From Bacteroidetes bacterium UBA2322 (GTDB lineage: Bacteria > Bacteroidota > Bacteroidia > Chitinophagales > UBA2359), in assembly GCA_002345145.1 (NCBI GenBank), contig DDVC01000073.1, forward strand, positions 17,809 through 81,808: DNA of 64,000 nucleotides, written 5' to 3'. The translations under genes were made by a program, and so were the position numbers. Shown here in pieces: positions 45,386-64,000 of this stretch. Position 1 is the first letter of the stretch. Every line of letters begins with the position of its first letter. The notes under the pieces are model-generated. The model saw only the letters and a program-made list of their open reading frames with translations. It had not been told where the DNA came from and made no database searches.

Positions 45386-45438
45386 CTTTACCGGTAACCC
45401 GTTTTGCTATATTTATACATGTTCAAAATTATCGGCTT

Positions 45439-46209
45439 TTATGTTATGTACTTTTCAAATGGTTTCACAAATCGGGTAACCATATCATCGGCTCTTCTTC
45501 GGGCTTGTGCCACAAAATGAACTAAGTAAGATTTAGCCCAATCTTCCATACTACCTGTGTAATTCTGGTCTAAGTCGGAAACATGAAACTGAATTTGCAT
45601 AGCTGCTGCCCAATTAATGTATAGGTTGGCTGGGTTACATTTAAACAAGTACGCAACGTGAGCATCATTGTATATTAACTTATCGTGGTCAAGTTTCCAG
45701 TCAATTTGAAGATAATTGATGGTGAAACTATCAAATTCCTGATTATCAAACATTTTTGCACAAACCTGCGCTAATTTAAATGCGGATATGATATTAGGCG
45801 GCTGTGCCGATTTTGCTAAATTTCGAGTTTTAATATCTATAATTTCATAAAAATTGCCTTTCACAACCAAAATATCGGCTGTATCATTTTGCTTTTCATC
45901 AAATGGGTTTTCAATACTCCACTTGTCGGTAGCATTTTTGCCCCTACTCAATAAAAATAAAACAGTTGGGGAGTTAAATAATGCCTGCCTTGCCTCGTAA
46001 CCAATTATAGCCGGGTGTTTGCTATATAAATCGTTTAGATATTCATACTGCCTAAAAGTATATTGAGGCAACTGTTTTTTAATTTCCCGATAAACATATT
46101 TATCGAACGGCTCACCTGCCGCATGTCCCGATAAAGTACCCGATATAGGTTTGGGTATAGACGTTCCTTTAATACTGTTAATTAATTCAGTATAATTTAC
46201 TATATTCAT
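45439..46209 (-). CDS. HincII-like type II restriction endonuclease
   Basis: GTLSGHAAGEPF, QNDTADIL, DIKTRN..SAQPPNIISA, LYINWAAAMQIQFHV, all as in HincII; ATGA overlap with the MTase stop. Confidence 0.92.
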   Translation of the reverse strand: MNIVNYTELINSIKGTSIPKPISGTLSGHAAGEPFDKYVYREIKKQLPQYTFRQYEYLNDLYSKHPAIIGYEARQALFNSPTVLFLLSRGKNATDKWSIENPFDEKQNDTADILVVKGNFYEIIDIKTRNLAKSAQPPNIISAFKLAQVCAKMFDNQEFDSFTINYLQIDWKLDHDKLIYNDAHVAYLFKCNPANLYINWAAAMQIQFHVSDLDQNYTGSMEDWAKSYLVHFVAQARRRADDMVTRFVKPFEKYIT

Positions 46210-47804
46210 GGCATATTGAGCAAATGGTTAAATGTTTGATTTATCAGGTTCAGCAGTTCCCTATCTTTGGAGCAGAGGTATTGCCGGGTTAGTTCTGATA
46301 TAGTATCATGTACAGCAACCTCTTTTGGGTTAGCCCAATCTATTGCCCTAAAAGGAATACTGGAAATAGGTTTTTCAGAAAACTCAACGATATTTCCTTT
46401 CACAATTCCATTACATTTTAACCAATCGAAAACAATTGGCAGGTTTAGGTACGACAAAATATATTCTATACTTTCCTTAGTGGTTGGTTTTTTAAAAATT
46501 GCCGTTACATCTTGTGTTGGAAAAAAGCCCTTCTCAACTAAGGCAAACCGGAAATGATTTTTATTGGAAATCCGCTCTTTGCAAGGCACAAAGATTCGCT
46601 TTTCGGGCTTATTAAATAGGTTTAAGTTTCTCAGAAAAACCCACTCCCAATAATTTATTTTCCTGTTATACTGGTATCTTTTTTCTAAATCAGCTTTATA
46701 GGGTTTAAAGTGTTGGTAAAAATGGGGGTATTTTTCTTTAAAAGTTGCTTCGGTTAGTCCTTCTTCTACATAAATATAGGTAGTAGCATTTTCGGCATAA
46801 AAGGGTTTTAGGTCTTTGGCTTTTACCACCTTCATTGTTGCAGCAAGTTCACGGTTGGTTAATACAGCGCCATTTACCTGAAATGCTTTGTCTAAACCAC
46901 TCACCAACCCATTACCAATATCGCAAATATCTCCAATGGTATAAAGCTCTACATTTCCCTCATCAAACAAGGATAGCGGAGCATTTGCATTAAACTTGCT
47001 GCAACTGTTTTCAAAAATCTTTAACCTCTCTTGTACTTCATCGGCATGTAAAATCCACCTTTCGTTTAGTTTAAATTGAGAAACCGATAGGTATTCGACA
47101 TCTTTACATGGCGTTTGATTTTTGAGGGCTGTAAGTGTTTTCTTAGTAAGTTTTTGGTTGGCATAAAATTTTGCAACCTTAATAGAAGGTTTTTTTTCTT
47201 TTGATTTTATGTACTTAAAAACAACAATAGACACTGTTACCTTATCAAAAACAGGGGTTTCATTAAAATGGTATATTTCTTCAAAATAACCATTCTCTAC
47301 CATATAATTCCGAAGTGAAATAGAGTGGGTAGTGTTCATCCAGTATTCGGGACAAACAAAAATGAGCTGCCCATTTTGGTTCAACAACTCAATAGACTTT
47401 AAGATGAAGATGTAGAGATAATCGCAAAGAGAGTTGAAGTATTTATTCCAAATTACACTTTTGGCAAGCTCCTGTTTTAGCTCGGTTTCAAGGTTTTTCC
47501 AACGTATATAAGGCGGATTTCCGATAACAAGGTCAAACTTGTTTTCAATTTTTGCCGAAACAAAACTCTCATACTTCACGCATGAAAATTCGTTCGCCAA
47601 ATGGGGATCTATTTCATAAGCGGTTAAGTTGTTGAAGCCTTTTTGTTGTAATAATTTCAAAAAAATGCCCTCACCGCAAGAAGGCTCTAAAATTGTAGAA
47701 GATGGAAAAATATCAGCCAACTCAATCATAAATTCGGCCACTACTTTAGGGGTAAAGTATTGACCGAATTTATTCTTGGTGTTTTGTTTAACGGAAATTT
47801 CCAT
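46206..47804 (-). CDS. N6-adenine DNA methyltransferase (M.HincII-like)
   Basis: GQYFTP, LEPSCGEG, IGNPPY; cognate partner of the REase. Confidence 0.93.
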   Translation of the reverse strand: MEISVKQNTKNKFGQYFTPKVVAEFMIELADIFPSSTILEPSCGEGIFLKLLQQKGFNNLTAYEIDPHLANEFSCVKYESFVSAKIENKFDLVIGNPPYIRWKNLETELKQELAKSVIWNKYFNSLCDYLYIFILKSIELLNQNGQLIFVCPEYWMNTTHSISLRNYMVENGYFEEIYHFNETPVFDKVTVSIVVFKYIKSKEKKPSIKVAKFYANQKLTKKTLTALKNQTPCKDVEYLSVSQFKLNERWILHADEVQERLKIFENSCSKFNANAPLSLFDEGNVELYTIGDICDIGNGLVSGLDKAFQVNGAVLTNRELAATMKVVKAKDLKPFYAENATTYIYVEEGLTEATFKEKYPHFYQHFKPYKADLEKRYQYNRKINYWEWVFLRNLNLFNKPEKRIFVPCKERISNKNHFRFALVEKGFFPTQDVTAIFKKPTTKESIEYILSYLNLPIVFDWLKCNGIVKGNIVEFSEKPISSIPFRAIDWANPKEVAVHDTISELTRQYLCSKDRELLNLINQTFNHLLNMP

Positions 47805-51272: not shown

Positions 51273-52460
51273 TTACCCTCGCATATACCCATACCCGATG
51301 GCTGTTTTTGCGCCTATGCCGTGCAAAGTAAGGGCAGACTGTAGCCAGTAGGTGGCAAGCTCCAATACTGTACTTTTATTACTGAGCCTGCTGCCCGATG
51401 GCAGGAAAACGCCCATATCGCCCATTTTTTGTAACCCGATAGCCTCTAATGACGGATTATCTCTAACGCCTACAATGGTTTGGAAGTAAAAATCGTTGCC
51501 CGATAAAGATTTATTGCCTACCGTTAAAAACACAATGGGATTGGGGCTTTGTGTATCGGTAGGGGCTTCATTGCCACCGTAGTAATTGGGGTAGTGAACG
51601 TTCATAATATCGGGTTCTATGGCGGGTGCGGCATTGGGGAAACTGTCAAAAAACAGGAGCTGCCCTTCGTGTTGTTCTTTATCGTAGCTCTTATCATCGG
51701 AGCCAAGTAAGTAAACAAACAGCTCATTTTGCAGGGCAATGGTTTCCTGATTATTAAAACAGCAGGCTATAACCCAACTGCGCACTACGCCTTTTATACT
51801 GCTGGCAGGCAGGTAGGGTATGCCATAGATGTGGTGTAGGGTAATGGCGGTTTCATAAACACTTTCTAAGCCTAAGCCCACAATGAGCCTCCAATCGGGC
51901 TGAAACCGCAGGGTGTGGTAGTTGCCGTGTGGGTGCGTAAGGGAGCGGGCACAGCGCTCTTGCCGGGCGGCAAGAGCGGTAAAATCGGTACTGCCGTAAT
52001 TGGGGCGGATTTGATATTCTATCTGTCCTCGGTAGGTGCGGAAAAAATAAAATTCATGCCTGCCTCTTGCCGTATTCCATTCACATCGGGTGGCTTTGTA
52101 GAGTTTCAAGGAAAAATTGTCTATATCGGTAAAACCGTTCAGGTTGCGCAGTATGGGGTGCAGTATTTTGGTTTTATCAAAGCTGTCGGGGTGTTTAAAT
52201 GTATTGCCGCCGGTGGGTTGTTTGGCAGTTTGCCGGGTTAAATCGAGCAGTACCGTACCATTTGTCAGCACAATTTTTTTGACTGCGCCGCCTTCGGAGT
52301 AAAAAGTGCAGGCTGCGCCGTTTAAATCGGCATTGGTAAATATGTACTGCGGCGGAACGTTAATTTGTTTGGTTTTACCGTCTTTTTCATATTGCAAGTA
52401 CCCCACAAACCTGCCTTTTTGTGTGGGCAGTATTACCAATCGGGCATCTGTTTGTTGCAT
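51273..52460 (-). CDS. cmr6: Type III-B CRISPR RAMP Cmr6
   Basis: RLIVGLG, LHHIYGIPYLPASSIKG, FFDSFP, DIMNVHY, GIGAKTAIGYG. Confidence 0.95.
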   Translation of the reverse strand: MQQTDARLVILPTQKGRFVGYLQYEKDGKTKQINVPPQYIFTNADLNGAACTFYSEGGAVKKIVLTNGTVLLDLTRQTAKQPTGGNTFKHPDSFDKTKILHPILRNLNGFTDIDNFSLKLYKATRCEWNTARGRHEFYFFRTYRGQIEYQIRPNYGSTDFTALAARQERCARSLTHPHGNYHTLRFQPDWRLIVGLGLESVYETAITLHHIYGIPYLPASSIKGVVRSWVIACCFNNQETIALQNELFVYLLGSDDKSYDKEQHEGQLLFFDSFPNAAPAIEPDIMNVHYPNYYGGNEAPTDTQSPNPIVFLTVGNKSLSGNDFYFQTIVGVRDNPSLEAIGLQKMGDMGVFLPSGSRLSNKSTVLELATYWLQSALTLHGIGAKTAIGYGYMRG

Positions 52461-52471
52461 AAGGTTGAGAT

Positions 52472-52855
52472 TTAAGCGGTGATTGCTTCAGCAAAGCGGC
52501 GGTACCAGTTTAAAAAAGCAAGCACTTCATTAGTAATGGCGCGGTAAACGGCGGGGTCTTCCAAATTGATGAGGTAATCTATAAAGCCGGTATCGGTATT
52601 GGTGGTTACCTTAGTGTGAATATCGGGAGCTACTTTCTTAATATCGTCTTTCAGCCATTTTATTATATCGGCATAAATGGTGTTGTATGCCTGCCTGTTT
52701 TTTGATTTTATGAAAGCCAATGCCGGCGCTAAGCCATGACTTTTAATCATCATGGGCACTTTTTTGGCGTAAGATTTAAACTCGTCGGTTTTTGGTGCCT
52801 CTTGCACGTATTTTAATGCTTTGGCGGCTCTGCCTTGTTCTACTTTACTACGCAT
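52472..52855 (-). CDS. cmr5: Type III-B small subunit Cmr5 (Cas11)
   Basis: EQGRA..A, FKSYAKKVPMMIKSHGL, YRAITNEVLAFLNWYRRFA. Confidence 0.92.
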   Translation of the reverse strand: MRSKVEQGRAAKALKYVQEAPKTDEFKSYAKKVPMMIKSHGLAPALAFIKSKNRQAYNTIYADIIKWLKDDIKKVAPDIHTKVTTNTDTGFIDYLINLEDPAVYRAITNEVLAFLNWYRRFAEAITA

Positions 52856-52877
52856 GGTATAGTGATTTTTGGATGGG

Positions 52878-53972
52878 TTAGAGTAAATGGGTTCTTAGTA
52901 CGCCTTTACCCAATGTGGTATTAGCGCCCAATTGAAAAACGTGGTTGAGTTGTTTGGCAAGGGTATCGGTTACAAACTCCTGCACTTCATTTGCGCTGAG
53001 GGTGGCTTTTTTACCGCGCTCATCGGTAAACATGGCAAGGCTGTATAAGATGCTCTCGGTAGGGAGGTATTCTTCGGTAAACAATGCGCCGGTGGCTACG
53101 GTACCGGTTTGGTTGTCTATTTTGGTACGGGTTACTACTTCGGTGCTGAGTTTTACAAAGTCTCTAAAATCGTCGTCGGACAGAATGACGAGGCGGTTTT
53201 TGAGCAGTAATTGCCAGTAGTTTTGTTCGGGTTGGGTAAATAGCATTTTGGCTAATGCACCGGCAAATTTATAGGCAAGGTCTTCGGTATCGGTTTTTAC
53301 CTCAAAAGCGTATTCCTCCAATACTATCGTTTTGTCGTTTATACCTATTTCGTTGGCATTGCTTGCCCTACATGCCTGCTGCCCAATGGCTAATTTAGGT
53401 ACTAAGGCGCTAAGGGTTTGTTTGAGTTCGTTATTAATGTTTGCAATTTTGAGTTCGTGTTCTAATTTTGCCAATACCGATTTGCAGGTTATCCACACAA
53501 AAACGCCTTTCATGCTCTTAACCGGAAACAGCAGCAAGCGCGCATCGGTAAGGGCAAGGCAGCCGGCAAATTCGTGTCCGTCTTTTGCCTTGTCATCACC
53601 GTCTTCTTTGTATTCTTTGTATTTGAAAAGTTTTTTCAGCCTGTTGGCGGTAGCTTTTTTCATACTGCCGTCGTCAAACCCAAAAACCCGATGCACTTTT
53701 ACATCGTTGGCTTCCCAAGAAGCAAAGGCTTTTGCTTTATTTTCATGCTCTTCTTCGGGTAATGCTTCATCGGTTCTTACGTTTTTAAACGTTTCGTAGG
53801 CGTGTTCAAAGGCTTCGCGCAGGGCGCCTTTTAGCGAGGAGCTTTCAATTTTGGGGAAATCGGTATGCCGCTCGCGCTGGATAGGGAGGTCAACAAACCC
53901 TAAGTCATCGCCGGTGCCGGCGTGCAGGGGTGTTTCGCAAATAAGAAACAGGGGGCGTGTAATTTGGTACAT
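52878..53972 (-). CDS. cmr4: Type III-B RAMP Cmr4 (intact, catalytic D28)
   Basis: [52 protein letters not shown]. Confidence 0.96.
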   Translation of the reverse strand: MYQITRPLFLICETPLHAGTGDDLGFVDLPIQRERHTDFPKIESSSLKGALREAFEHAYETFKNVRTDEALPEEEHENKAKAFASWEANDVKVHRVFGFDDGSMKKATANRLKKLFKYKEYKEDGDDKAKDGHEFAGCLALTDARLLLFPVKSMKGVFVWITCKSVLAKLEHELKIANINNELKQTLSALVPKLAIGQQACRASNANEIGINDKTIVLEEYAFEVKTDTEDLAYKFAGALAKMLFTQPEQNYWQLLLKNRLVILSDDDFRDFVKLSTEVVTRTKIDNQTGTVATGALFTEEYLPTESILYSLAMFTDERGKKATLSANEVQEFVTDTLAKQLNHVFQLGANTTLGKGVLRTHLL

Positions 53973-53995
53973 AGTGTATGTAGATTTTACGGTTT
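53849..53995. repeat. 147-bp direct repeat, copy 1 (cmr4 5' end plus 23 nt upstream)
   Basis: Aligns to 54916-55062 with 6 mismatches and no gaps. Confidence 0.97.
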
Positions 53996-54053
53996 AACTA
54001 AAATGAAGAGATTGAAACTAAAGAGTGGTTTATATAGGATTGCATAGTGGTGT

Positions 54054-54651
54054 TTATTCTTGTTTTTGAGGTGGGTTAATACTCTCGTAAATTGGTAAAG
54101 CCCATTCGTTAATAGGCGCATAAGTTTTTTGAAGTAACCCATTACTTGCTCTGAAAAGTAGTGTTGCATCTGCATACTCAATGGAATTATCATACACATA
54201 TAATCTATCCACAAAAGAGGAAGCAAGGCAACAGTTAACAATAGATTTAGAAAAGCGACTAACAATTTTGGTTATTGGCACATCATGCCCACCCTCCATA
54301 ACTCTATGGGCAATACGGCTTGCATTAATAGATGGGTGATTAGTACCAACAAAAAATAAACGTATAAAAAAACCTGCTTCTTTTGCTCGGAGCATATACT
54401 CAACTTTATCAATTGCTGATAGCACAGTTTCAAAAATAAGGCTTTGTTTCAGTAAAAGACATTCTTCCCTTTGTTGTGCAGCAAGATTAGCCGCTTTTAG
54501 TACTGCCTCCGGAGAATTCCAATCGCCAAATTGCTCTTGCGCTATATTATCGGGATTTATATAAATACAGCCTTGTATCCATTCGTGTTTCAGGATTTGG
54601 GTGGTTATAGACGTTTTTCCCGAACCATTTGGACCTGCAATAACCAACAAC

Positions 54652-54671
<20 letters not shown>
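54054..54671 (-). CDS. Zeta-toxin-like P-loop kinase/ATPase
   Basis: IAGPNGSGKTS, YINPDNIA, FETVLS, RIAHRVMEGGHDVP, YVYDNS. Confidence 0.85.
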
Positions 54672-55111
<440 letters not shown>

Positions 55112-55125
55112 TTAATTTAAAAGCA

Positions 55126-55731
55126 TTAAATTATGTTTTTGTATTCGTTTATAATGGTTTGTAAAGCGCCTAAAACCATGTCTAATTGATTGATGAAATA
55201 CTTTTGTGTATCTATGGTAAAAGCGGAGTCTTCAAATTTAAGAAACATCCATTCATCGGCAGTGGTAACGCAGCCATACACAAAGGGAACCGGCTGGTTA
55301 TGCTTTTGGTTAAACAACCATGCACCATACATTTGTGCGGCGCATTGGTCAATACCCAATTCAAAGTCATTTTTTTTAGCTTCTATGAGGGTAAAAATTG
55401 GATAGCTGATGGTAAATGACTGGGTGTTTTTGGCTAAAATAAAATCACATTCTCCGGTTAGTCCGGCGTTTTTGTCTGCTTCAAGCATATCGCCGGAGTA
55501 GATGGTGAAAAAATCATCATTTTGCTGTTTGAGTTCTAATAAAACAGGAGCTACAATCATTTCTGATTTTGCTTTTTCGCTTTTAATAGGATTTTTTCTG
55601 CTCATGGCAAGCGTATCTTTTAGCCAGTTGCTGTATGGCAGTGGCGCTACATGGGTAAAAAGGGGTTTATAGTAGGCTGCTAAGCCAAATTGCTCTTTTA
55701 GGCGCAGCAGGGTAAATTGTTTGTAAGACAT
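55126..55731 (-). CDS. PD-(D/E)xK-fold protein, HsdR-N-like family
   Basis: E..I.P.L, GECDFIL, IEAKK, QCAAQM, YGCVTT..W.FL. Confidence 0.65.
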   Translation of the reverse strand: MSYKQFTLLRLKEQFGLAAYYKPLFTHVAPLPYSNWLKDTLAMSRKNPIKSEKAKSEMIVAPVLLELKQQNDDFFTIYSGDMLEADKNAGLTGECDFILAKNTQSFTISYPIFTLIEAKKNDFELGIDQCAAQMYGAWLFNQKHNQPVPFVYGCVTTADEWMFLKFEDSAFTIDTQKYFINQLDMVLGALQTIINEYKNII

Positions 55732-55747
55732 GGGATTAAACTGAGTT

Positions 55748-57211
55748 TTATCGGGTTAAACGCTCCCAAGTGAAATCATTCCATTGTATAGTTTCGAAAT
55801 CAAATTGTTTTACTCTATCCGGGGTTATTTGCCAGTTTACATTATGTTTGTAATTATCGGGCGGTTGTACCCATAGCCAAACTAAATGTGAACAGGCAGA
55901 AATGTTAATTTGTTTCAATTCTTTAAATGCTGCCTCTTGGAATCGGTTAGGTTGGCGGTGGTGGTACATTGCCACAATACATTTTATTGCCCTTTGCCGC
56001 TCGTTGGCGTATGCCAGCGATGCTTGAAAAGCGCCTTGCCTGCATTTTCTCTCAATAGTATCACCATTTCCAAGTATTTTTACCTTCTCAGGCTTTACTT
56101 CTATGGATAGAATAAATTGGTCATTTTCTACCCACACATCGGCATCGTAAGCATCTCCTTGGGGTGATATACCAATTGGTTTTTCCAATATTGTTTTATC
56201 GGGAAATTTATTGGCAAAGAACTGAAATACTTTTAGCTCCATTACCTTGCCTACTAAATTGCCTATATCAATATCGTTGCTTCGGATGTTATTGTGGTAG
56301 GCAGCAAACAATAATTTACCTAATGCAGATAGGCTTATGCGCTTGGTATTTTCGCTGCCCGTTTCAATTTCAATGATTAAACCAGAATTGTCAATACTCC
56401 CAAAATCTGCTTGTTCTGCTAAATTATCTTTGAATACCTCGGGTGTAGGGAGGTTGTATAATGCCTTCTCGGGTTTAAGTAATTCAAATGCTAAGTAGTT
56501 ATCCTCAAAAATACTATAATCAAACGCCACCGGCAGTTTTTCTAAGCCTATAATTTGTCCTTCTTTGTTATCTTGGTGGGTGTAGCGGAGGGGGTAGTCG
56601 TAAATTTGCCCCATAATGGTGAGGATAGGAATGGTGGCTTTATAACCGCCCGATATGTTTAGTAGGGGTTTATCGGTACCGGCTATGGCGTTTATGGCGG
56701 TAAGCAGGTTAGAGAAGCCGGTGGTTTGGAATTTTTGAGGGTCTTTTACCTGTAAATCGGGTATGGGCAATATAAACGCATCGGGATATGCCGATTGATA
56801 TATGCTGCGTTGTTGCCAAATTGTGCCTAATTCGCCGGTATTGACCGCAGCGGCTATTTGTATTCGTTTGGCGGTTTCATCGCCGTCTTCTTTCTTAAAA
56901 TTGAGCCATGCTATAATGAGTTCGCAGGCTATAACGGCGGTAACGGTATCGGTGGCAAGGAGGTACACTTGCAGCGTTTCGGCAGGTTTTTCTTTGGCTA
57001 TTTCATAAAGGGTGTGAATTTCGGCACATACTTCTTGGTCGGTTTTGGGAAAAAGTTGGTTGCTTTGATTGTCTTGATTGCGAAATCTTTCAATTTCTGG
57101 CTGAATGCGCTCATTATCCCAATCAGACAGCAATGCATCTTTGCTGTTTGGAAACTGACCTTGATAATTTTGTGTTAAGATGGAAATGCCTACTGTGGTA
57201 ATCACTTTCAT
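55748..57211 (-). CDS. CARF (APE2256-type) fused to a PD-(D/E)xK nuclease; putative cOA effector
   Basis: TTVGIS, CAEI, ATDT, LQVKDPQKF, NISGGYK; C-terminal E...DAD...EVK. Confidence 0.8.
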   Translation of the reverse strand: MKVITTVGISILTQNYQGQFPNSKDALLSDWDNERIQPEIERFRNQDNQSNQLFPKTDQEVCAEIHTLYEIAKEKPAETLQVYLLATDTVTAVIACELIIAWLNFKKEDGDETAKRIQIAAAVNTGELGTIWQQRSIYQSAYPDAFILPIPDLQVKDPQKFQTTGFSNLLTAINAIAGTDKPLLNISGGYKATIPILTIMGQIYDYPLRYTHQDNKEGQIIGLEKLPVAFDYSIFEDNYLAFELLKPEKALYNLPTPEVFKDNLAEQADFGSIDNSGLIIEIETGSENTKRISLSALGKLLFAAYHNNIRSNDIDIGNLVGKVMELKVFQFFANKFPDKTILEKPIGISPQGDAYDADVWVENDQFILSIEVKPEKVKILGNGDTIERKCRQGAFQASLAYANERQRAIKCIVAMYHHRQPNRFQEAAFKELKQINISACSHLVWLWVQPPDNYKHNVNWQITPDRVKQFDFETIQWNDFTWERLTR

Positions 57212-57224
57212 AACTGCCCGATGT

Positions 57225-58301
57225 TTAAATTTTACCCACCATTGCCAAGCCGTAACCCTCGTTTGGCAGGTAGTCTGATATGGTTTTACAATGCAATAAC
57301 TCCTTTACCGCTTCAATAGTTCCGGCTACCAAGCGGAAGTAATAAACCGACCCGGCAGGCACTGTGCGGCACATGGTTTTGGGTTGTTGCTCTTTAAGGT
57401 CAAAACCACCTATGGGCAGGGGTTTACCCAGCGCTGTGCCGGTGAGTTGCAAGGTTATTTTGCGGTCGCCGTTTCCTATTTCGCCAATGTAGTCATTTTC
57501 GGGTTTAATCCATGCGGGCAGCCAGCCTTGTGCAAAAATGGCGGGTGTAGCAAGGTAGAGTTTAAACAGGGTATCGGTTGGGGCAAGCGTAAAGGGTATT
57601 TGTGCGCTTACTGTTTTGTTGGGTTCTACGCTGAAATGGGCTAATTTGCTATCGGCGCCCAGTTTGGCAATGCTAAGCCATTTGTGAGGAAAATCGGGCA
57701 GTTCTACTACAATTTGGGTTTTATTACTGAGGCGCTTCATATCCACCCGATAGAGTTTACCCTCATCGGTGGCAAAGGTGAGGTTATCTCTGCCAATGCC
57801 AATTTTAGGTTCCGAAACAAAGTACTTAGCGTTGGGCGATATTTTTGCTACATCGGTGGCTTTTAAATAGTCTTCAAGGTCAAACAGGGTAATGATGCCT
57901 TTGCTTTTTTCATTGTCCACCACAAAATCGGGGTAGGTTATTTGGGTAAGCGGTTTATTGCTCACTATGCCGGCTGCGGCAGCGTTGCGAGGCTGGAGTA
58001 TGGTTTTCTGGGGATTGTTTTCCGTTTTTTCTATTGCAAAGTCATTGGGGGCGGTTACACAATAACCGCTTTCTGTTTGAAGGTATATGCCCGATATGGT
58101 GATGTGTTTGGTTGCTTCTTCCAAAGCCAATTTATCGGCAGTGGCAAAATTGGTATTGCCCAAAAACAGGGTGCGGATAGCGCCGTAAATAACGGAGGGC
58201 GAAGGCGGAAAAAGGCTGTCTGCCCACGAGTCGTCGCCCATAGAAAAGGGTTTGCCATCGCGAAAAAAGAGGGTATCAAAAGGGTTAATTTTAATAAGCA
58301 T
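57225..58301 (-). CDS. cmr3: Type III-B RAMP Cmr3 (Cas5 group)
   Basis: PFDTLFFRDGKPF, PPSPSVIYGAIR, KIGIGR, LYLATP, IGGFD, VPAGSVY, EGYG. Confidence 0.95.
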   Translation of the reverse strand: MLIKINPFDTLFFRDGKPFSMGDDSWADSLFPPSPSVIYGAIRTLFLGNTNFATADKLALEEATKHITISGIYLQTESGYCVTAPNDFAIEKTENNPQKTILQPRNAAAAGIVSNKPLTQITYPDFVVDNEKSKGIITLFDLEDYLKATDVAKISPNAKYFVSEPKIGIGRDNLTFATDEGKLYRVDMKRLSNKTQIVVELPDFPHKWLSIAKLGADSKLAHFSVEPNKTVSAQIPFTLAPTDTLFKLYLATPAIFAQGWLPAWIKPENDYIGEIGNGDRKITLQLTGTALGKPLPIGGFDLKEQQPKTMCRTVPAGSVYYFRLVAGTIEAVKELLHCKTISDYLPNEGYGLAMVGKI

Positions 58302-60141
58302 GGGCGGCAGTTTTTTCGGGTTGATTGGTTTGGCGTTTGATGTAGTTGGCTATGTTGAGGGCTTCTAAGAAAAATTCCAAAGTTTGGGCGTTGGTTAAAA
58401 GTTTATTGAGTGCGTTAAACATGGCATCAAAATCGGCATTTTTGAGGTCGGATTTTTTAGAACGTTCTAATAGGCGTTGCATTTCTAATCGGATAAAATT
58501 GGAATTTTCAATTTGGTTAATAAAATCTTTCACTTCTATAAACAGCGCCAGCTCCCGATTTAAAGACCGGATAAAAGTATCGGAAAAGTTATCTTGCTGC
58601 AATTGCTGTGTTATGGTTTGCAGGTGGGGTAGTTGTTCCCATTTAAAGCAGGTTTGGTGCGTTTCGCCCGATTTTTTGAGTACGCCTATGGCAAAAGCGT
58701 TTCTATCGCCATCTTCTTTGGCTTTGTCTTGCAGGCGGCGGGCTTCGTTGAGGGCAATACCCATAGGCGAGCCGTAATGGGCAATGGCAATGCCGGCAGA
58801 AAAGGTAAAGTTGAAACCGGGTTTGAGTACATCGGTAAAGGTTTGTTGGAGTGGGCTGTTTACGGTGCGGTGAAACTCGCCCTGCACCTGTAAAAGTACG
58901 TCGTACAGGTGATTGAGGTTGATGAGGGCAAGGCAATCATCGCCGCCGGCATAAATAACTCTACCCTTGGGGAAGGTGATGATTTTTTCTACCGATTTGG
59001 CAAATTGGGTAAGCAATCGGGAGGTTTCCTTTTGAAAATTGTGGAGGTATTGGTTGCACTTATCGGGTTTAAGGAAGTTGCCGGTCATGATTTTACCCAT
59101 GCTATCGCCGTCAAAGGTTAAAACGGCATAGTATTTTTTTAGCCTGCTTGCGGGCAGTTTCTGCACATGCTGGCGCACACAGCTTAGCGCTCCTTCGGGC
59201 AATCCTTGTTGTTCAAAAAACTTGGGGGTGAGGTTTTCTTCGTAAAAAACTTGCCCGTTAATTTCATCGGCAAAACGCAAAAGATTGTTGTTCACCTCTG
59301 CTTTTTCTCCAAGACACAGTCCAATAGGTTGTAAGTGAGATATAAACTTACCGGTATCATCGCACCAGTTAAACAAATCGTACAAAGCTATATTGGCAGT
59401 GGATGGGAATATCAGATTTTTATGCTTATACCAGCGTTTAAGGAAGGAAACAGTGCTAAGCCCTTCGCCGGCTTGGAGGAGTTTGTGGGTGCGGTCGTCG
59501 TTGTCTTTGGGTTGGTTATCCCAGAGACAAACTTGGTTGGGTTGGGTAAACAGTTTTTTATCCAGCAGTCGGGCGGTATCGGTTTCATCTTTGGTTTTCC
59601 GATATACTTTTACATTTCGCTCGCCGTCTAAGTTGCATTTTCGCCCTTTTTCGGGCAGTTGGGTAAAGGTGCGTATGTTTTTAAGTCCGCCAAAAATTCT
59701 TTCGGCGGTTTGGTAGTTGTGGGCGTAAGTTTCGGGCGTATAGGGTTTAAAGAACCAGGTAATTTCTAAATGGCTGTTGATTTGGTCAAAGTAGGCTTTT
59801 TGGTCAAAATTGGGCGGGGCTTGCATGAATTTGAGGGCATCATGGGCAAGGTTGGTAAAGAGGTTGCGCACGGCATTTTCTATGGTTTGCCCTATGGTGG
59901 CAAGGTCTTCATTTCCGTTATAGATACCGGCAAATTGGTTGGGTATGTTTTGCCCGTTGTTGTTGTCGGTTTGTTGGGGGTAAGTGATGTCTATACCTTG
60001 CGCTTTGGCGGCTTGAATGGCTTTGTCTGCCAACGCCGATAATAAACGACTGCCTCCAAAAAGGTCTTGGGCTTTTCGGGCTTGGGCTATAAAGGTTTGT
60101 ACCGGACCTACCGAGAATATGAAAATGTGGTTAGAACTCAT
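58291..60141 (-). CDS. cas10: Type III-B Cas10/Cmr2, HD-less, intact Palm cyclase
   Basis: SVGPVQTFIAQARK.QDL..GS.LLS, IPNQF, FDGDSMG, YAGGDD, FSAGIAIAH; start MSSNH (60141). Confidence 0.96.
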   Translation of the reverse strand: MSSNHIFIFSVGPVQTFIAQARKAQDLFGGSRLLSALADKAIQAAKAQGIDITYPQQTDNNNGQNIPNQFAGIYNGNEDLATIGQTIENAVRNLFTNLAHDALKFMQAPPNFDQKAYFDQINSHLEITWFFKPYTPETYAHNYQTAERIFGGLKNIRTFTQLPEKGRKCNLDGERNVKVYRKTKDETDTARLLDKKLFTQPNQVCLWDNQPKDNDDRTHKLLQAGEGLSTVSFLKRWYKHKNLIFPSTANIALYDLFNWCDDTGKFISHLQPIGLCLGEKAEVNNNLLRFADEINGQVFYEENLTPKFFEQQGLPEGALSCVRQHVQKLPASRLKKYYAVLTFDGDSMGKIMTGNFLKPDKCNQYLHNFQKETSRLLTQFAKSVEKIITFPKGRVIYAGGDDCLALINLNHLYDVLLQVQGEFHRTVNSPLQQTFTDVLKPGFNFTFSAGIAIAHYGSPMGIALNEARRLQDKAKEDGDRNAFAIGVLKKSGETHQTCFKWEQLPHLQTITQQLQQDNFSDTFIRSLNRELALFIEVKDFINQIENSNFIRLEMQRLLERSKKSDLKNADFDAMFNALNKLLTNAQTLEFFLEALNIANYIKRQTNQPEKTAAHAY

Positions 60142-60202
60142 ATTAGCTAATGATTTCTTGTATTTATTGATGTAAGGTTGATATTGAAATAAATATAACC
60201 GT

Positions 60203-60838
60203 TCAAATGAGGTTTTTGATGTTTTGTAAGATGGTAAAAACAAGGGCGAGTTTGTCAAACTCGGTTACGTTGTAGTTGGTGGTATTTTGGTATTGTTTAC
60301 CCTGCAAAGCTACAAAATACCAGTCTTTACCTACTATATAACAACCATACAATACCCTGTTTTTGTTGGTATTGAGGTGTTGTGCGGTAATCATGGCAGC
60401 CAGCAGTTGCCCAAGCGGGTCGGCATCGGTGCCTTGTTCTTTTTTGTACTCATGTAAAAAGAAGAAAGGCTCGCGCGGTATTTGTTTACCCGATGCCAGC
60501 ATCCACTCCACCACGCCCGAAAGTTCTATTTCGGGGGTTTGGAGTTGCATGATGCGCTGCGAAAAAGGTTGGTACCTATCGCTTTCATAATAATCTACCA
60601 AAAATAGAAAGGGCGAAATAAACTGCATTTTCAATTCATCTTCGTTCCAGTCTAAGAATTTGCGGCTAATGAGTTTGTGTAGTTTTTCCAACTCTTCTTG
60701 TACCGATGCGGGTACATGGGGTTGTACTTGGGTTAAGGTTTGCAAGGGTGTAAAATAAGGCTGTGCGGTTTCCAATCTTTCTAAGCCAAACCAAATGGTG
60801 AGGTCTTCCCAAAGGCATTTTTCAAAGGTTTTTTTCAT
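60203..60838 (-). CDS. PD-(D/E)xK-fold protein, HsdR-N-like family (second, divergent)
   Basis: WNEDELKMQFISP, LSGVVEW, HEYKK, GQLLAAM..AQ.LN, YGCYIVGKDWYF. Confidence 0.6.
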   Translation of the reverse strand: MKKTFEKCLWEDLTIWFGLERLETAQPYFTPLQTLTQVQPHVPASVQEELEKLHKLISRKFLDWNEDELKMQFISPFLFLVDYYESDRYQPFSQRIMQLQTPEIELSGVVEWMLASGKQIPREPFFFLHEYKKEQGTDADPLGQLLAAMITAQHLNTNKNRVLYGCYIVGKDWYFVALQGKQYQNTTNYNVTEFDKLALVFTILQNIKNLI

Positions 60839-60877
60839 AGATTAGGTTTTGGCGGGTGCAGGAAAAGGAAACAGGGG

Positions 60878-61222
60878 TTATTGCGAGTTGGGGGTTGTTA
60901 TATTTTTATCGGGATAAAGCCATTTTACCTGCGCAAGTTTGTCTTTAAACATTTGCATAATAGCTTCTTCCCAATCGTTGGTAGTGGGCAGGTAGGGAAT
61001 AATGGCTTTTAGCATTTCTTTTCGGTATTCGTTGGCGCGGAGGCGGTCTATGTTTATTTGCGGAAGGTAAGTTTTCACCTCTTCAAAATCGTAGTTAATT
61101 AAATCCGGAAAACTGGCATACTCAATCAGCCGCTTCAGCCTAAAAGTGGGCGAAAGCGTATCGGGGTCAATGCCTGTGGAGGCTCCGGTATCCCAAAAGT
61201 ATTTAAGAAATCGTTTTTGCAT
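60878..61222 (-). CDS. Small protein, DUF6922-like
   Basis: KYFWD...D...RL.EY...D pattern; overlaps the HNH stop by 20 nt. Confidence 0.45.
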   Translation of the reverse strand: MQKRFLKYFWDTGASTGIDPDTLSPTFRLKRLIEYASFPDLINYDFEEVKTYLPQINIDRLRANEYRKEMLKAIIPYLPTTNDWEEAIMQMFKDKLAQVKWLYPDKNITTPNSQ

Positions 61223-62003
61223 GGTGGAGGATGAATTTTAAAAAGAAAATAACTATATTGCAAAATGGTTCAAATTTCAACTCACTATCCTCATCATCGC
61301 GGTGCAACTGCATGTAGTGGTCTAAATATAATTTGGCTTCATCTCTATCCAAATCTATTATGCCTGTTTCTGTGATGCCCGGAAATGCCTCTTCCAGAAC
61401 AAGCGCTCTTGATTTTATCAATTGTTGATGATTTAAGCGCAATTGTTTTATGGTAAATGCTGCGTTTTGATTGCCATTTGATTCAAATATATTCCCTGAA
61501 AAATCATAAACAAATGATTTTTCACATGTAAATACCTCTTCACTTTCCTTTTCAAGTGGGTCAATAATTCTGACAAATATTCCGTTTTCCTCAATTATTT
61601 CTAATATATCATCTTTTGCATCACCGCAATGCTTCGGTTTTATTTGCTCTCCGTCATCACCCACCTCTATTCCGCTACAACAAACAAATAAGTTATTGTA
61701 ATCAAACATATTTTCGGGGGATTTGCTTCTAGGGTTATAATGCTCAATAATAACACTTTTATCATTTGTTAGTGGTTTGCAACAATAACAACATATAAAG
61801 CCCTGTTCTTGTAGCAGCGCTAAACGCAAATTCTTTTTCTCAAAGCAATACCCAAACTCATTTATGATGCGAGTTCTGGTATCTTCATCGTTAATGTCTC
61901 TTAACCTATTCCATGAGTAAGAGGTAGTGCCGGTAAGTTTTTCATAGTCCGCTACCCAGCGGATAAAATTGGGTGGTGGTTGGTTTTTGATTATTCCTTT
62001 CAT
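61203..62003 (-). CDS. HNH endonuclease, PtuB/retron-associated (TIGR02646-like)
   Basis: LLQEQGFICCYC, IEHYNP, YNNLFVCC, HCGDAK. Confidence 0.85.
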   Translation of the reverse strand: MKGIIKNQPPPNFIRWVADYEKLTGTTSYSWNRLRDINDEDTRTRIINEFGYCFEKKNLRLALLQEQGFICCYCCKPLTNDKSVIIEHYNPRSKSPENMFDYNNLFVCCSGIEVGDDGEQIKPKHCGDAKDDILEIIEENGIFVRIIDPLEKESEEVFTCEKSFVYDFSGNIFESNGNQNAAFTIKQLRLNHQQLIKSRALVLEEAFPGITETGIIDLDRDEAKLYLDHYMQLHRDDEDSELKFEPFCNIVIFFLKFILHHAKTIS

Positions 62004-62006
62004 CTT

Positions 62007-63680
62007 TTACCTTCCAATTAGCTGTTTGCGCTTAATAAGCCCATCGGCACGTGCAAAAACGATTTCTTCTTTGCCTATTTTCCTTTCTAATACTTCTCTC
62101 AGTAGTGCAGCCTCTTTCCACCGCTCTTGTGCAATTAATCTGGAATAAGTAAGAAGATTTGTTTCTATTTCTTTGTTTCGTGTTGGTGTATTCATTAGTG
62201 GTAAAATATCACTAATGTCTTTGCCGTAGGTATATTGTTCAACTGTTTTTATAACACCAGCATCAAGTATTTTTATCTGCCTATTATGTACTTCTCCTAA
62301 AATGTGTGGACTATGCGTAGTTACCACAAACTGTAATTTCGGGAAGATTTCTTTTAATTTAGATAATACTTTTCGCTGCCATAGTGGGTGCAGGTGTTGG
62401 TCTATTTCGTCAATCAATACAATGCCCTTACCCTCTTTGAGTGGGTTAATTTCATAATTAGGATTAGCTGCAATAATACGGCGAACAAGGTCGGCAACTA
62501 AGGCAAAAAGGGCTTTTTCGCCCGATGACATCTGAGAGAAGGAGATGGTTTCCGTTTTGTTGTCGTAGGTCAGTTTGTCAAAGGCAAACTCTTTTGATTT
62601 GTAATCAAGCCTAAAATTGCTGTAGCGTTTGTCGTCGTCATTCAGCATGTCAAGCACGGCATTGTTTAACAGGTCAAGTTCTTCATCTAAAGATTTTCCT
62701 TGTACCACTAAATCAAGTTTATTTTTGTGGGTTTCTTGTTCTGTTTTTACATTTTCGAATGTAGCAGAACTTTCTACAAAGGCGGCTTCGGCATTTTGTA
62801 TTCTCTGCTTCAGTGTTTTTAACTCGTTAGTTAGGTCTTTAAATTCTACAGTGCCGGTTTGTTTGTTTTTTCTGAGTTGCGCTATTTTATCCGTTACTAT
62901 TTCTTCATCAAGCTTTAGCGCTGTTACCTCACCTTCTTGTTTGGCTTTTTGGGCTCCTATGTTTTTTAGTTCCTGTTCCAATGCTGCTATATCGTCTTGA
63001 AACTTTTTTATTTTTGTATCTTTTTCTTGCAAGGCTAATCTTTGTTTTTCATCGTACCATTGGTAAAGTTGGTTAAAACTAAATCTTTCGGGTTCTAAGG
63101 CATTGGCATAAACAGCATCTATTCGGGATTTTACCTTTGCATTGCCGGCTGCTTGTGGTCTATTAAAAGCATTTCTGCCGTAATACACCAAGATAGGTAG
63201 GTTTTCTTTCTTTCTGAGAACATTGGTTGCTATTCTATATCCTTCTATGGTAATGCTATCGGCAATGTTGCCTTGCGCATATTTAACTTCTGTTCCACCA
63301 TTGTCATTAAGGTTTAACTCCCAAAAACAATTTGCATTGTGAATTGGTCTATCATCTTCCTCCTCGACTTCATCGGTATTGTTAGTTTTGGATTTATTCA
63401 ATTCGGTATATGGATACTCCATATTTACCACAAGCCGGCAAGATGCCGCATGTAGCCCATTTTTAACATCGGTTGATTTGAATTTAGTTTCATATTTTTG
63501 CCTAACGAGGGCATATTGGTAAAAAAAGCGCAAACACTCGGCAGTAGCATCTAATATGGTAGATTTTCCGCCGCCGTTTTCCGAAATAAAGATGGTGATA
63601 TCGGGGTCAAACGTTACTTCCAAATTGCCAAATCCTCTGAAGTTTTCTAAGTGCAGCGCTTCTAATCTGAGGTCGAACAT
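62007..63680 (-). CDS. ABC/AAA ATPase, PtuA-like, with coiled-coil insertion
   Basis: LENFRGF, SENGGGKST, MSSGEK, VLIDEIDQHLHPLWQ, TTHSPH. Confidence 0.88.
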   Translation of the reverse strand: MFDLRLEALHLENFRGFGNLEVTFDPDITIFISENGGGKSTILDATAECLRFFYQYALVRQKYETKFKSTDVKNGLHAASCRLVVNMEYPYTELNKSKTNNTDEVEEEDDRPIHNANCFWELNLNDNGGTEVKYAQGNIADSITIEGYRIATNVLRKKENLPILVYYGRNAFNRPQAAGNAKVKSRIDAVYANALEPERFSFNQLYQWYDEKQRLALQEKDTKIKKFQDDIAALEQELKNIGAQKAKQEGEVTALKLDEEIVTDKIAQLRKNKQTGTVEFKDLTNELKTLKQRIQNAEAAFVESSATFENVKTEQETHKNKLDLVVQGKSLDEELDLLNNAVLDMLNDDDKRYSNFRLDYKSKEFAFDKLTYDNKTETISFSQMSSGEKALFALVADLVRRIIAANPNYEINPLKEGKGIVLIDEIDQHLHPLWQRKVLSKLKEIFPKLQFVVTTHSPHILGEVHNRQIKILDAGVIKTVEQYTYGKDISDILPLMNTPTRNKEIETNLLTYSRLIAQERWKEAALLREVLERKIGKEEIVFARADGLIKRKQLIGR

Positions 63681-63685
63681 GGTGT

Positions 63686-64000
63686 TTAATTTAAAACATT
63701 ATTCCTAAAATCCTCTTGCAAGGAGAGGCTGATTTTATTGCGGTCTCTATCGGGTATGGTGTTGAGGGTGGCGGTGATGATGCGGTTTTGGTTGCCCACT
63801 TGGGTAAGCGAGGCAATTACCGGCGAGGCAAACCGCCCTCTGTTGGCATGACCAAGGCTGGGTTCATAAGTTGAGCCATTTTTCTGTTTCAGTTGGTGGG
63901 TAACCCTGCCTATTTTTTTGGTCAAAACTTCCCAATTGGTATTACCCGTTTGGCTTAGGTGCAGCAAGCGCAAATAAGGGTAACTTGCCGTGCCGCCGCT
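63686..64000 (-). CDS. cmr1: Probable Cmr1 C-terminus (5' part outside window)
   Basis: Open to the window edge; LGHANRGRFASPV motif; position upstream of cmr2 in the same operon. Confidence 0.7.
   Translation of the reverse strand, partial: SGGTASYPYLRLLHLSQTGNTNWEVLTKKIGRVTHQLKQKNGSTYEPSLGHANRGRFASPVIASLTQVGNQNRIITATLNTIPDRDRNKISLSLQEDFRNNVLN

Follow-up and report, generated by a model that had tools for sequence, protein, structure and literature searches.

A type III-B Cmr operon of a Saprospiraceae-like bacterium with a Septu pair behind cmr1 and changing defence cargo upstream of cmr2 and cmr4

The stretch of Bacteroidetes bacterium UBA2322 analysed here (the window, 64,000 nt, G000:C49:17809-81808 of a 4.9 Mb genome in 254 contigs) carries a type III-B CRISPR (Cmr) operon, located entirely on the minus strand, with genes of other defence systems among its cmr genes. 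The explanation that we regard as best, and as probable, is a chromosomal type III-B operon of a Saprospiraceae-like lineage with the ground plan cmr1, (PtuA-PtuB), cmr2, cmr3, (CARF effector), cmr4-6, where the Septu pair PtuA-PtuB (PtuAB) is co-inherited and the other additional genes are turnover cargo. An earlier note on this DNA offered two alternatives, a single co-expressed, layered defence system and a cas operon serving as a site of cassette capture. Both are partly right, for different genes.

The minus-strand order is cmr1, PtuA, PtuB, a gene for a 114-aa protein, a first PD-(D/E)xK gene (PD1), cmr2 (cas10), cmr3, a CARF effector gene, a second PD-(D/E)xK gene (PD2), a 5' fragment of cmr4, a putative antitoxin gene, a zeta-like kinase gene, cmr4, cmr5, and cmr6. 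All genes proposed in the earlier note are present and co-oriented; they are listed below with window coordinates, which are used throughout, and with the E-values of the Pfam, PADLOC, and NCBIfam matches.

63686-64573 (573 nt of the 5' end outside the window), minus: cmr1, first gene of the operon (RAMPs 1.1e-16; PADLOC Cmr1 1.9e-29)
62007-63680, minus: PtuA, Septu ABC/SMC-type ATPase (PADLOC PtuA 4.4e-91; AAA_21/AAA_15)
61203-62003, minus: PtuB, Septu HNH nuclease (PADLOC PtuB 1.5e-39; TIGR02646 1.7e-16)
60878-61222, minus: open reading frame for an all-helical protein of 114 aa, orphan AbiEii partner (no family match in Pfam, PADLOC, or NCBIfam)
60203-60838, minus: PD1, cas-associated PD-(D/E)xK family (PADLOC PDLC01472 1.9e-13)
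58291-60141, minus: cmr2/cas10 (Cas10-Cmr2_palm2 1.5e-30; Cmr2_N 1.2e-10; PADLOC Cas10 8e-74)
57225-58301, minus: cmr3 (Cas_Cmr3 3.7e-47)
55748-57211, minus: CARF protein of 487 aa (Cas_APE2256 1.8e-14; PADLOC CARF7 1e-42, residues 1-310)
55126-55731, minus: PD2 (PADLOC PDLC01472 3.4e-46)
54916-55062, minus: cmr4' fragment, a 147-nt direct repeat of 53849-53995 with 96% identity
54652-54855, minus: putative antitoxin, helical, 67 aa, overlapping the start of the zeta-like gene (no family match)
54054-54701 (likely ATG at 54671), minus: zeta-like P-loop kinase, putative toxin (Pfam Zeta_toxin 1.2e-10)
52878-53972, minus: full-length cmr4 (RAMPs 2.5e-24; PADLOC Cmr4 1e-70)
52472-52855, minus: cmr5 (Cas_Cmr5 4.7e-28)
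51273-52460, minus: cmr6, last gene of the operon (RAMPs 6.5e-15)

Cmr1, Cas10/Cmr2, Cmr3, Cmr4, Cmr5, and Cmr6 were all matched by Pfam and PADLOC and follow each other in the canonical order, as the earlier note had read it. Cas10 contains the cyclase motif GGDD (YAGGDDCLAL). Its translation probably starts at Met40 of the 655-codon reading frame, where the alignment of orthologues begins at residue 41, so that the protein comprises 616 aa. It begins at the Cmr2_N region, and no match to an HD domain was obtained for this Cas10, the only one scanned. Cas10 proteins lacking HD are known, and the absence of this domain does not exclude type III-B membership. The Cas10 proteins of related loci, compared by length, are likewise short (573-717 aa) whether or not PtuAB is present. 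The idea that the presence of PtuAB tracks the loss of HD was therefore rejected, as far as length shows. The full-length cmr4 retains Asp28, which we take to be the equivalent of the catalytic D26 of P. furiosus. The description of the operon as closely spaced and free of terminators also held: adjacent genes are separated by anything from a 20-nt overlap to 86 nt, and terminator-like hairpins were not enriched (24 vs 18.2 +/- 4.0 in shuffled sequences), none of them being convincing on the coding strand. A scan for sigma-70 promoters gave 32 sites against 27.8 +/- 5.0 expected and was uninformative; in addition, this consensus differs from Bacteroidota promoters.

The objects for comparison were 12 loci in eight genomes, found by a Cmr3 search of 33 genomes of the same family, and further loci from a scan of the genome collection and from metagenome contigs encoding homologues of PtuA or of the 114-aa protein; part of the comparison set thus consists of metagenome contigs. 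All loci were mapped with the proteins of the locus described here. A Cas10 scan of the genome collection for close relatives returned two distant loci only, with 33%-34% identity. Three of the 12 loci lie in this genome (C49, the operon described here; C136:29000-46827, L021; and C194:5000-21173, L020), and their Cmr3 proteins are 39%-42% identical. The orthologous operon of a genome of the same genus (G029, L019) is similar from the start codon of cmr1 (64574) to 7 nt past the stop codon of cmr6 (51280). The operon is flanked by genes for a fatty-acid hydroxylase and BipA here and by genes for HADH, a decarboxylase, and tyrosyl-tRNA synthetase in G029. Because these flanking genes differ completely, the whole operon occupies different chromosomal contexts in the two genomes.

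PtuA starts 5 nt past the stop codon of cmr1 and PtuB 3 nt past PtuA. PtuA has a long coiled-coil insert and the Walker motifs GGGKST and VLIDEID; in PtuB the CxxC / EH / N motifs are conserved, and its match to the retron-type HNH model TIGR02646 (60.6 bits) exceeds the cut-off of 52.15. The NCBIfam equivalog scores are below their cut-offs (266 vs 500 for PtuA and 80 vs 150 for PtuB), and the pair thus represents a divergent Septu subfamily. Judged by motifs and profile matches, the locus is a true type III-B member with a true, divergent Septu pair.

In 10 or more distinct loci, from four genera and from metagenomes, cmr1 is immediately followed by PtuAB. These are the two loci of this genome on C49 and C136, the G029 locus, two loci in G008 (one cut by a contig end), those of G006 and G027 (the latter with the C-terminus of PtuA only), and the metagenome loci L030/31, L032-34, L070/71, L073, and L074. 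In none of the loci do cmr1 and PtuA lie apart, or overlap, by more than 14 nt, and PtuAB was never seen elsewhere in a cmr operon among the mapped loci. Among 400 other Bacteroidota genomes, 38 were PtuA-positive, and none of 29 PtuA loci taken from them had cmr1 or cmr2 within about 1.5 kb; about half of these 29 adjoin a recognisable PtuB, as in standalone Septu. No standalone Septu was found in the genome studied here. In the PtuA tree the clade of six embedded copies had support of 100/97, and when nine embedded copies were included, all of them fell into one clade of 11 (99/95). Strict monophyly of the embedded PtuAs was not rejected by the approximately unbiased test (p = 0.12). The Cmr1 proteins encoded in front of PtuA likewise form a cluster (83/84).

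The second locus of this genome, on C136, has the order cmr1a, PtuA, PtuB, cmr1b, cmr2', a PD1-like gene, and cmr2 onward. Its second cmr1 groups with a PtuAB-free locus (100/99), and the composition of the cmr1a-PtuAB block is distinct from that of the remaining operon. With at least 10 loci, one PtuA clade, and clustering Cmr1s, cmr1-PtuA-PtuB can be described as a co-inherited unit of long standing in this Cmr lineage; together these data say that the unit is, as far as trees and gene order tell, of single origin and has repeatedly been moved or lost. The fixed place of PtuAB behind cmr1 fits integration better than chance lodging. The layered system proposed in the earlier note is in part supported by PtuAB, a conserved partner of one Cmr1 lineage, but not by the PD-(D/E)xK genes and the toxin-antitoxin (TA) pair, which are dispensable in near relatives.

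Within the Septu pair, the last ~96 residues of PtuA and the entire PtuB constitute a swappable cassette with two alleles. The first allele is shared by this locus and L030 (70% identity) and the second by G029 and L032-34 (94%-100%), while identity between the alleles is 25%. Accordingly, PtuB of this locus is 25% identical to that of the orthologous locus in the same genus and 71% identical to that of L030. When the proteins of this locus are compared with those of L030, PtuA shows the lowest conservation (58%).

The earlier note had counted the CARF gene among the inserted modules. It is instead found between cmr3 and cmr4 in every related locus with a readable junction and in six further loci, and since this slot is always filled, the gene belongs to the ground plan and is not a foreign insert. 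The occupants of the slot vary. CARF7 has either the C-terminus of the protein described here or, in G029, another one, and other loci have a Cami1-like CARF7-RelE (L073) or a Can2/Card1-like CARF4-PDDEXK (L070, L074). For the last ~150 residues of the effector there are two unrelated alleles (55748-56518 here vs 7060-7800 in L019; L032 vs L033), exchanged among strains otherwise 95%-97% identical, with a sharp breakpoint at 56519. As for the proposed CARF-nuclease, the CARF half was confirmed: besides Cas_APE2256 and CARF7, the domain matches PDB entry 8phb by sequence (1.1e-05) and is of the APE2256/CARF7 (Cami1) type, not the CARF4 type of Can2/Card1. We take 8phb, of the APE2256 family, to be a Cami1 that binds cyclic tetra-adenylate (cA4). 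The nuclease half has a motif, D356/D358...E371-x-K373 in an alpha/beta pattern, and no profile support: the C-terminus gave no Pfam match at E<=10, and only two relatives of it were found among 5.8 billion proteins. It probably acts as a PD-(D/E)xK-like nuclease, at the level of this motif.

The remaining genes differ between close relatives. PD1 is missing from G029 and L030, where 28 nt lie between the flanking regions of similarity; it is present in L032-34 and shares 51% identity with the copy in the C136 locus. Of PD2, the first ~105-113 nt are retained in G029, and the gene is absent from L030. PD1 and PD2 are 25% identical. A third paralogue (G000:C223:4237-4836), 40% identical to PD2, lies outside any cmr locus and adjoins genes for a 451-aa P-loop ATPase and a 545-aa TPR protein on the opposite strand; this may be another defence island.

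The zeta-like kinase exceeds the Zeta_toxin cut-off (41.6 vs 22.3 bits) and has the Walker A motif GPNGSGKT, whereas a sequence search of PDB returned generic P-loops only; no family was matched by the 67-aa reading frame that overlaps its start. This putative TA pair is absent from G029. L030 contains an antitoxin pseudogene with an internal stop and the first nine codons of the kinase, fused directly to the cmr4 leader, which lends indirect support to the putative antitoxin role of the small frame.

The 114-aa protein is the best conserved one of the locus (86% identity to L030). It had been labelled DUF6922-like, and this label was not borne out, since no Pfam match at E<=1 was found except a chance one of 0.2. 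In G029, in L074, and in standalone modules the gene of its homologue shares 20 nt with the 3' end of a gene for a 226-aa AbiEii nucleotidyltransferase. Such standalone modules occur in unrelated genomes (e.g., a metagenome-assembled genome of Leptospiraceae; L068, L072), and the nucleotidyltransferases of all these pairs are 41%-46% identical to one another. G029 has an intact AbiEii gene and L070 one with an internal deletion, whereas this locus, L030, and L032-34 have none, and PtuB is joined there to the conserved overlap. The AlphaFold2 (AF2) model of the 114-aa protein consists of six helices (predicted local distance difference test, pLDDT, 84.6), and a fold search with it gave no PDB match better than E = 3.6. 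By the genomic context of its homologues, the gene is an orphan partner of an AbiEii-type nucleotidyltransferase.

Other cargo occurs at the same junctions. Between the CARF gene and cmr4 there are AbiEii with its partner (L020, L024, L073), HEPN-MNT (L070), and a YhcG nuclease (L028). In L074 the cargo ahead of cmr2 comprises Fic, AbiEii with its partner, and MNT-HepT, and between cmr2 and cmr3 a DUF3368 PIN-like gene (L020) and an AbiEii remnant (L070) were found. The third locus of this genome, on C194, is without Septu and has a truncated YhcG and an AbiEii pair ahead of cmr4. The comparison of relatives' cmr loci, the check proposed for cassette capture, thus bore this alternative out, with variable cargo at the same junctions and remnants in close relatives. 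The low GC content ascribed to the inserts holds for PtuA (38.0%), PtuB (35.2%), PD2 (38.1%), the antitoxin (37.3%), and the zeta-like gene (36.9%), against 44.7%-48.4% in cmr1/2/3/4/6 and a genome mean of 44.3%, but not for PD1 (42.0%) and the 114-aa gene (42.3%). Alignment of the loci shows that the PD-(D/E)xK genes, the orphan AbiEii partner, and the zeta TA pair are fast-turnover cargo directly upstream of cmr2 and cmr4.

Traces of how cargo is gained are seen at cmr4. The 147-nt repeat comprises 23 nt of leader and the first 124 nt of cmr4 (codons 1-41). Its two copies show no difference in the first 104 nt and differ at six sites thereafter; at five of them the fragment agrees with the G029 allele while the full-length gene does not, and the sixth is a fragment-specific change of GAC to AAC (D28N). 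Immediately downstream of the fragment, similarity begins to the stretch of L030 from the CARF stop codon to the antitoxin. The simplest reading of these alignments is that the locus joins a G029-like state (CARF, PD2, cmr4) with the state of an L030 ancestor (CARF, antitoxin, zeta, cmr4) by an illegitimate crossover at nt 124 of cmr4 and a homologous exchange further downstream. Such a join resembles homology-facilitated illegitimate recombination. The same structure would result if a circle with the 147-nt segment were integrated by a single crossover. Similar scars are present in the C136 locus of this genome (cmr2' of about 25 codons, then the PD1-like gene, then cmr2) and in G006 (cmr4' of 56 codons fused in frame to the AbiE partner, then AbiEii, then cmr4), and the fragments are 98%-100% identical to the resident gene. 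A foreign origin of the cmr4 fragment in L024 was considered and rejected, as it is 98% identical to the 5' end of cmr4 of its own locus. Comparison of these alleles shows that cargo accumulates via recombination between alternative alleles, which leaves behind 5' gene fragments and remnants of lost cargo.

Several observations weigh against the proposed ground plan and the working of the system. The clade of embedded PtuAs also holds a standalone tandem Septu locus, L075, and the support for the Cmr1 cluster is only 83/84, with several long branches in the trees. The Cmr3 and Cmr4 trees mix PtuAB-positive with PtuAB-negative loci, so PtuAB has repeatedly been lost or moved without other visible change and Cmr does not need it. 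The GC content at third codon positions is 0.30-0.37 in PtuAB vs 0.47-0.54 in the cmr genes of this sub-lineage, which argues against long co-residence of the two in one genome. The AF2 model of the CARF protein, based on an alignment of three sequences, was poor (pLDDT 43) and unusable for a fold search, and given this and the absence of a Pfam match the nuclease activity of its C-terminus stays an inference. Finally, no CRISPR array adjoins the operon: scans for tandem repeats and short-range direct repeats revealed none in the window or in the 17 kb that precede cmr1.

The interleaving of loci in the Cmr3 and Cmr4 trees and the difference in composition between PtuAB and its cmr neighbours also speak for a possible reading to which we give about a third of the weight, namely that the operon is a permissive landing site. 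Its junctions would tolerate insertions, and all non-cmr genes except CARF, including PtuAB, would be autonomous defence or selfish modules that use the transcription of the operon without being functionally tied to Cmr. The fixed place of PtuAB would then go back to a single ancient insertion, passed on by descent and lost several times. This would agree with the free exchange of alleles of the PtuA C-terminus and PtuB, with the many families of TA pairs and nucleases at the same junctions, and with the published precedent of vapBC pairs within archaeal cas cassettes (PMC4390879). The standalone locus L075 (a metagenome contig of 7390 nt with PtuA-PtuB-PtuA-PtuB adjoining recQ) has both of its PtuAs inside the embedded clade, and the first of its PtuBs shares 42.5% identity with the allele of G029. 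What the landing site does not account for is that PtuAB always follows cmr1 directly and never occupies the junctions of the other cargo, across a PtuA divergence exceeding one substitution per site, that the Cmr1s preceding PtuA cluster, that the C136 locus has a cmr1-PtuAB unit of its own composition upstream of a complete second cmr1-6 set, and that 0 of 29 PtuA loci from other Bacteroidota are cmr-adjacent. The same constant position and tight coupling to cmr1, the joint clustering of PtuA and Cmr1 lineages, and the apparent movement of cmr1-PtuAB as a block in C136 could instead mean that Septu has been co-opted as a Cmr effector, a tentative reading by analogy. PtuAB would be held or controlled by the Cmr complex with its CRISPR RNA via a dedicated Cmr1, similar to its sequestration by RT-msDNA in retrons, would be freed or activated by target RNA or by a phage that disables the complex, and would supply a DNA or tRNA nuclease activity missing from the HD-less Cas10. 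No HD match was obtained for the 616-aa Cas10 of this locus, and the related ones are similarly short; in retrons, PtuAB is reported to be a co-opted and sequestered effector (PMC12819146, PMC12673091). Against co-option, Cas10 is about equally short without PtuAB, so the short form does not track it, PtuAB has repeatedly been lost from otherwise intact loci, and PtuB alleles are interchangeable between it and standalone Septu. A decaying or misassembled locus, with the cmr4 fragment, orphan partner, and crowding marking a dying operon or a repeat-induced assembly error, is highly improbable. It is true that the locus contains a gene fragment and an orphan TA partner, that many genes are split in the related loci L023 and L024, and that no array adjoins the operon. 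However, the six cmr genes, PtuA, PtuB, both PD-(D/E)xK genes, CARF, and the TA pair are full-length frames with intact motifs, other contigs of the genome have cas6, cas1, and an array, the repeat copies differ at six positions and lie inside a 103-kb contig, and a near-identical architecture is found in the independent metagenome assemblies L032-34.

The only array found is located at the end of contig C175 (C175:1-600) and is cut by it; it consists of at least eight repeats of 37 nt, GTAAATCACCCAATTCCATTATAGCGAGGATTGCGAC, which end in ATTGCGAC. Genes for cas6 and cas1 are on C198 (22214-31019), and a second cas1 is on C137:21690-22373. Rfam and CRISPR-repeat searches of the operon region gave no match.

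Under the preferred explanation of a co-inherited Septu pair with turnover cargo, the whole gene string would be transcribed as one operon and CRISPR RNAs would be supplied in trans by cas6/cas1 of C198 and the array of C175. The Cmr complex would bind target RNA, Cmr4 would cut it, and the HD-less Cas10 would make cyclic oligoadenylate, probably cA4, because the CARF domain matches 8phb, presumably a cA4-binding protein. cA4 would then activate the CARF7 effector, the C-terminus of which is probably a PD-(D/E)xK-like nuclease, while PtuAB, co-expressed with Cmr1, would add an ATPase-HNH nuclease arm. Coupling of PtuAB to Cmr in the manner of retron-Septu, suggested by analogy, appears rather unlikely; full autonomy of PtuAB is a possibility that we put slightly higher, and the remaining weight falls on co-expression that is beneficial without physical coupling.

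The putative TA pair would mainly stabilise the locus against deletion. Recombination between the 147-nt copies would delete the TA pair cleanly, and this is an event that an addiction module penalises. The most likely role of the TA pair and the orphan AbiEii partner is locus maintenance or immunity to related toxins. A more far-reaching and doubtful combination of these ideas, drawn by analogy, is a "Cmr-Septu" hybrid in which a dedicated Cmr1 would dock or regulate PtuAB and the nuclease would be released upon target RNA or phage attack, Septu being a portable effector recruited independently by retrons and type III CRISPR. In addition, TA modules with an addiction role would enter cmr operons by duplicative recombination, in which the 5' end of the gene downstream is copied.

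Some neighbouring features were recorded as well. A gene for a 468-aa alpha/beta-hydrolase/lipase (Lipase_C, AF_1763-like_C; C49:82674-84080, L002:3675-5081, minus) is located 293 nt upstream of cmr1. It is kept in L032-34, absent from G029, and not seen in L030, where the contig ends ~140 nt upstream of cmr1. It was left out as a part of the system, having no PADLOC match and being absent from G029. About 3.5 kb downstream of the operon, beyond the BipA and fatty-acid hydroxylase genes, a 33%-37% GC stretch (about 45400-47800) contains a gene for an Eco57I/MmeI-type N6 DNA methyltransferase (46206-47804, minus), which may be part of a restriction-modification system. Domains for sorting by the type IX secretion system are encoded near the locus. 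Short tandem arrays with units of 21-84 nt occur at contig ends (C66:1-1000, C88:1-300, C161:1-300, and C162:41200-41570), and a similar one, C194:2900-3220, lies near the C194 cmr locus. None of these is a CRISPR array; they are a probable cause of breaks in the assembly and may code for repeat proteins. Of the public relatives, the closest bears the name "Sphingobacteriales bacterium UPWRP_1", and more distant ones are named Saprospiraceae.

With type III-B systems that have in-operon CARF effectors (Cami1, Can1/Can2-Card1, Csx1), the locus shares the six cmr genes in the same order, the GGDD motif, and an APE2256/CARF7 domain. It differs by a CARF C-terminus without a family and by non-cas defence genes that interrupt two junctions. 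Like Septu, known standalone and as the effector of type I-A retrons (Ec78/Eco7, Ec83), it has a tightly coupled pair of ATPase and HNH nuclease that matches retron-type models, and the pair is likewise attached to a nucleic-acid-based sensor system. Here, in contrast, it is inside a cmr operon behind cmr1, and no reverse transcriptase was seen among the flanking genes. Shah et al. 2018 (PMC6546367) described genes for Cas_RecF or "SMC ATPase" with small RFas partners that adjoin type III modules of Crenarchaeota, which again means an ABC/SMC-type ATPase with a partner in or beside a type III cassette. Judged by the descriptions, the two are set apart, since those are archaeal with partners lacking a recognised domain, whereas here PtuB is a clear HNH protein and the ATPase scores as PtuA.

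The same study reported that type III cassettes are "intertwined" with accessory genes, listed a PD-(D/E)xK protein (Marme_0670, cluster 45) as a "possible nuclease", and found no TA pairs (PMC6546367). Both PD-(D/E)xK genes of our locus match the profile of this accessory family (PDLC01472), but they are two diverged paralogues in one operon, both dispensable in near relatives. TA pairs inside a cas gene string, with a proposed role in maintenance of the CRISPR-Cas locus, are known as vapBC and CreTA modules; vapBC pairs were found within type III-D cas cassettes of Sulfolobales (Garrett et al. 2015, PMC4390879). The case described here is bacterial, the toxins belong to the protein families zeta, AbiEii, HEPN-MNT, and Fic and are not vapBC or RNA toxins, and insertions recur just ahead of cmr2 and cmr4, with duplicated 5' ends of these genes at their flanks.

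The mixing of accessory genes with type III modules and TA pairs in archaeal cas cassettes are thus already known. PtuAB within cmr operons is not mentioned in the surveys of type III accessory genes PMC6546367 and PMC11229360, and the latter, a 2024 survey of type III effectors, has no mention of Septu, HNH, or ATPase partners. Full-text searches for Septu with type III or Cmr yielded no paper that describes this arrangement in its listing or in the passages checked. The co-option of PtuAB by retrons is well documented (e.g., PMC12819146 and PMC12673091).

What appears to be new is that a self-contained defence system, Septu, forms a conserved part of the operon and is bound to a single Cmr1 lineage. 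This closely parallels retron-Septu, solved recently, in which a nucleic-acid sensor restrains PtuAB. If Cmr restrains PtuAB likewise, PtuAB would be a general plug-in effector and a so far unrecognised nuclease arm for HD-less type III systems, and the conserved Cmr1-Septu unit makes it testable whether Septu is a portable effector for nucleic-acid sensors. Apparently new as well is the unusually clear record of cargo turnover within an operon, with alternative alleles, toxin remnants, retained partners, and 5' duplications, and this family of loci lends itself to studying how defence genes can be exchanged while the host operon stays intact.

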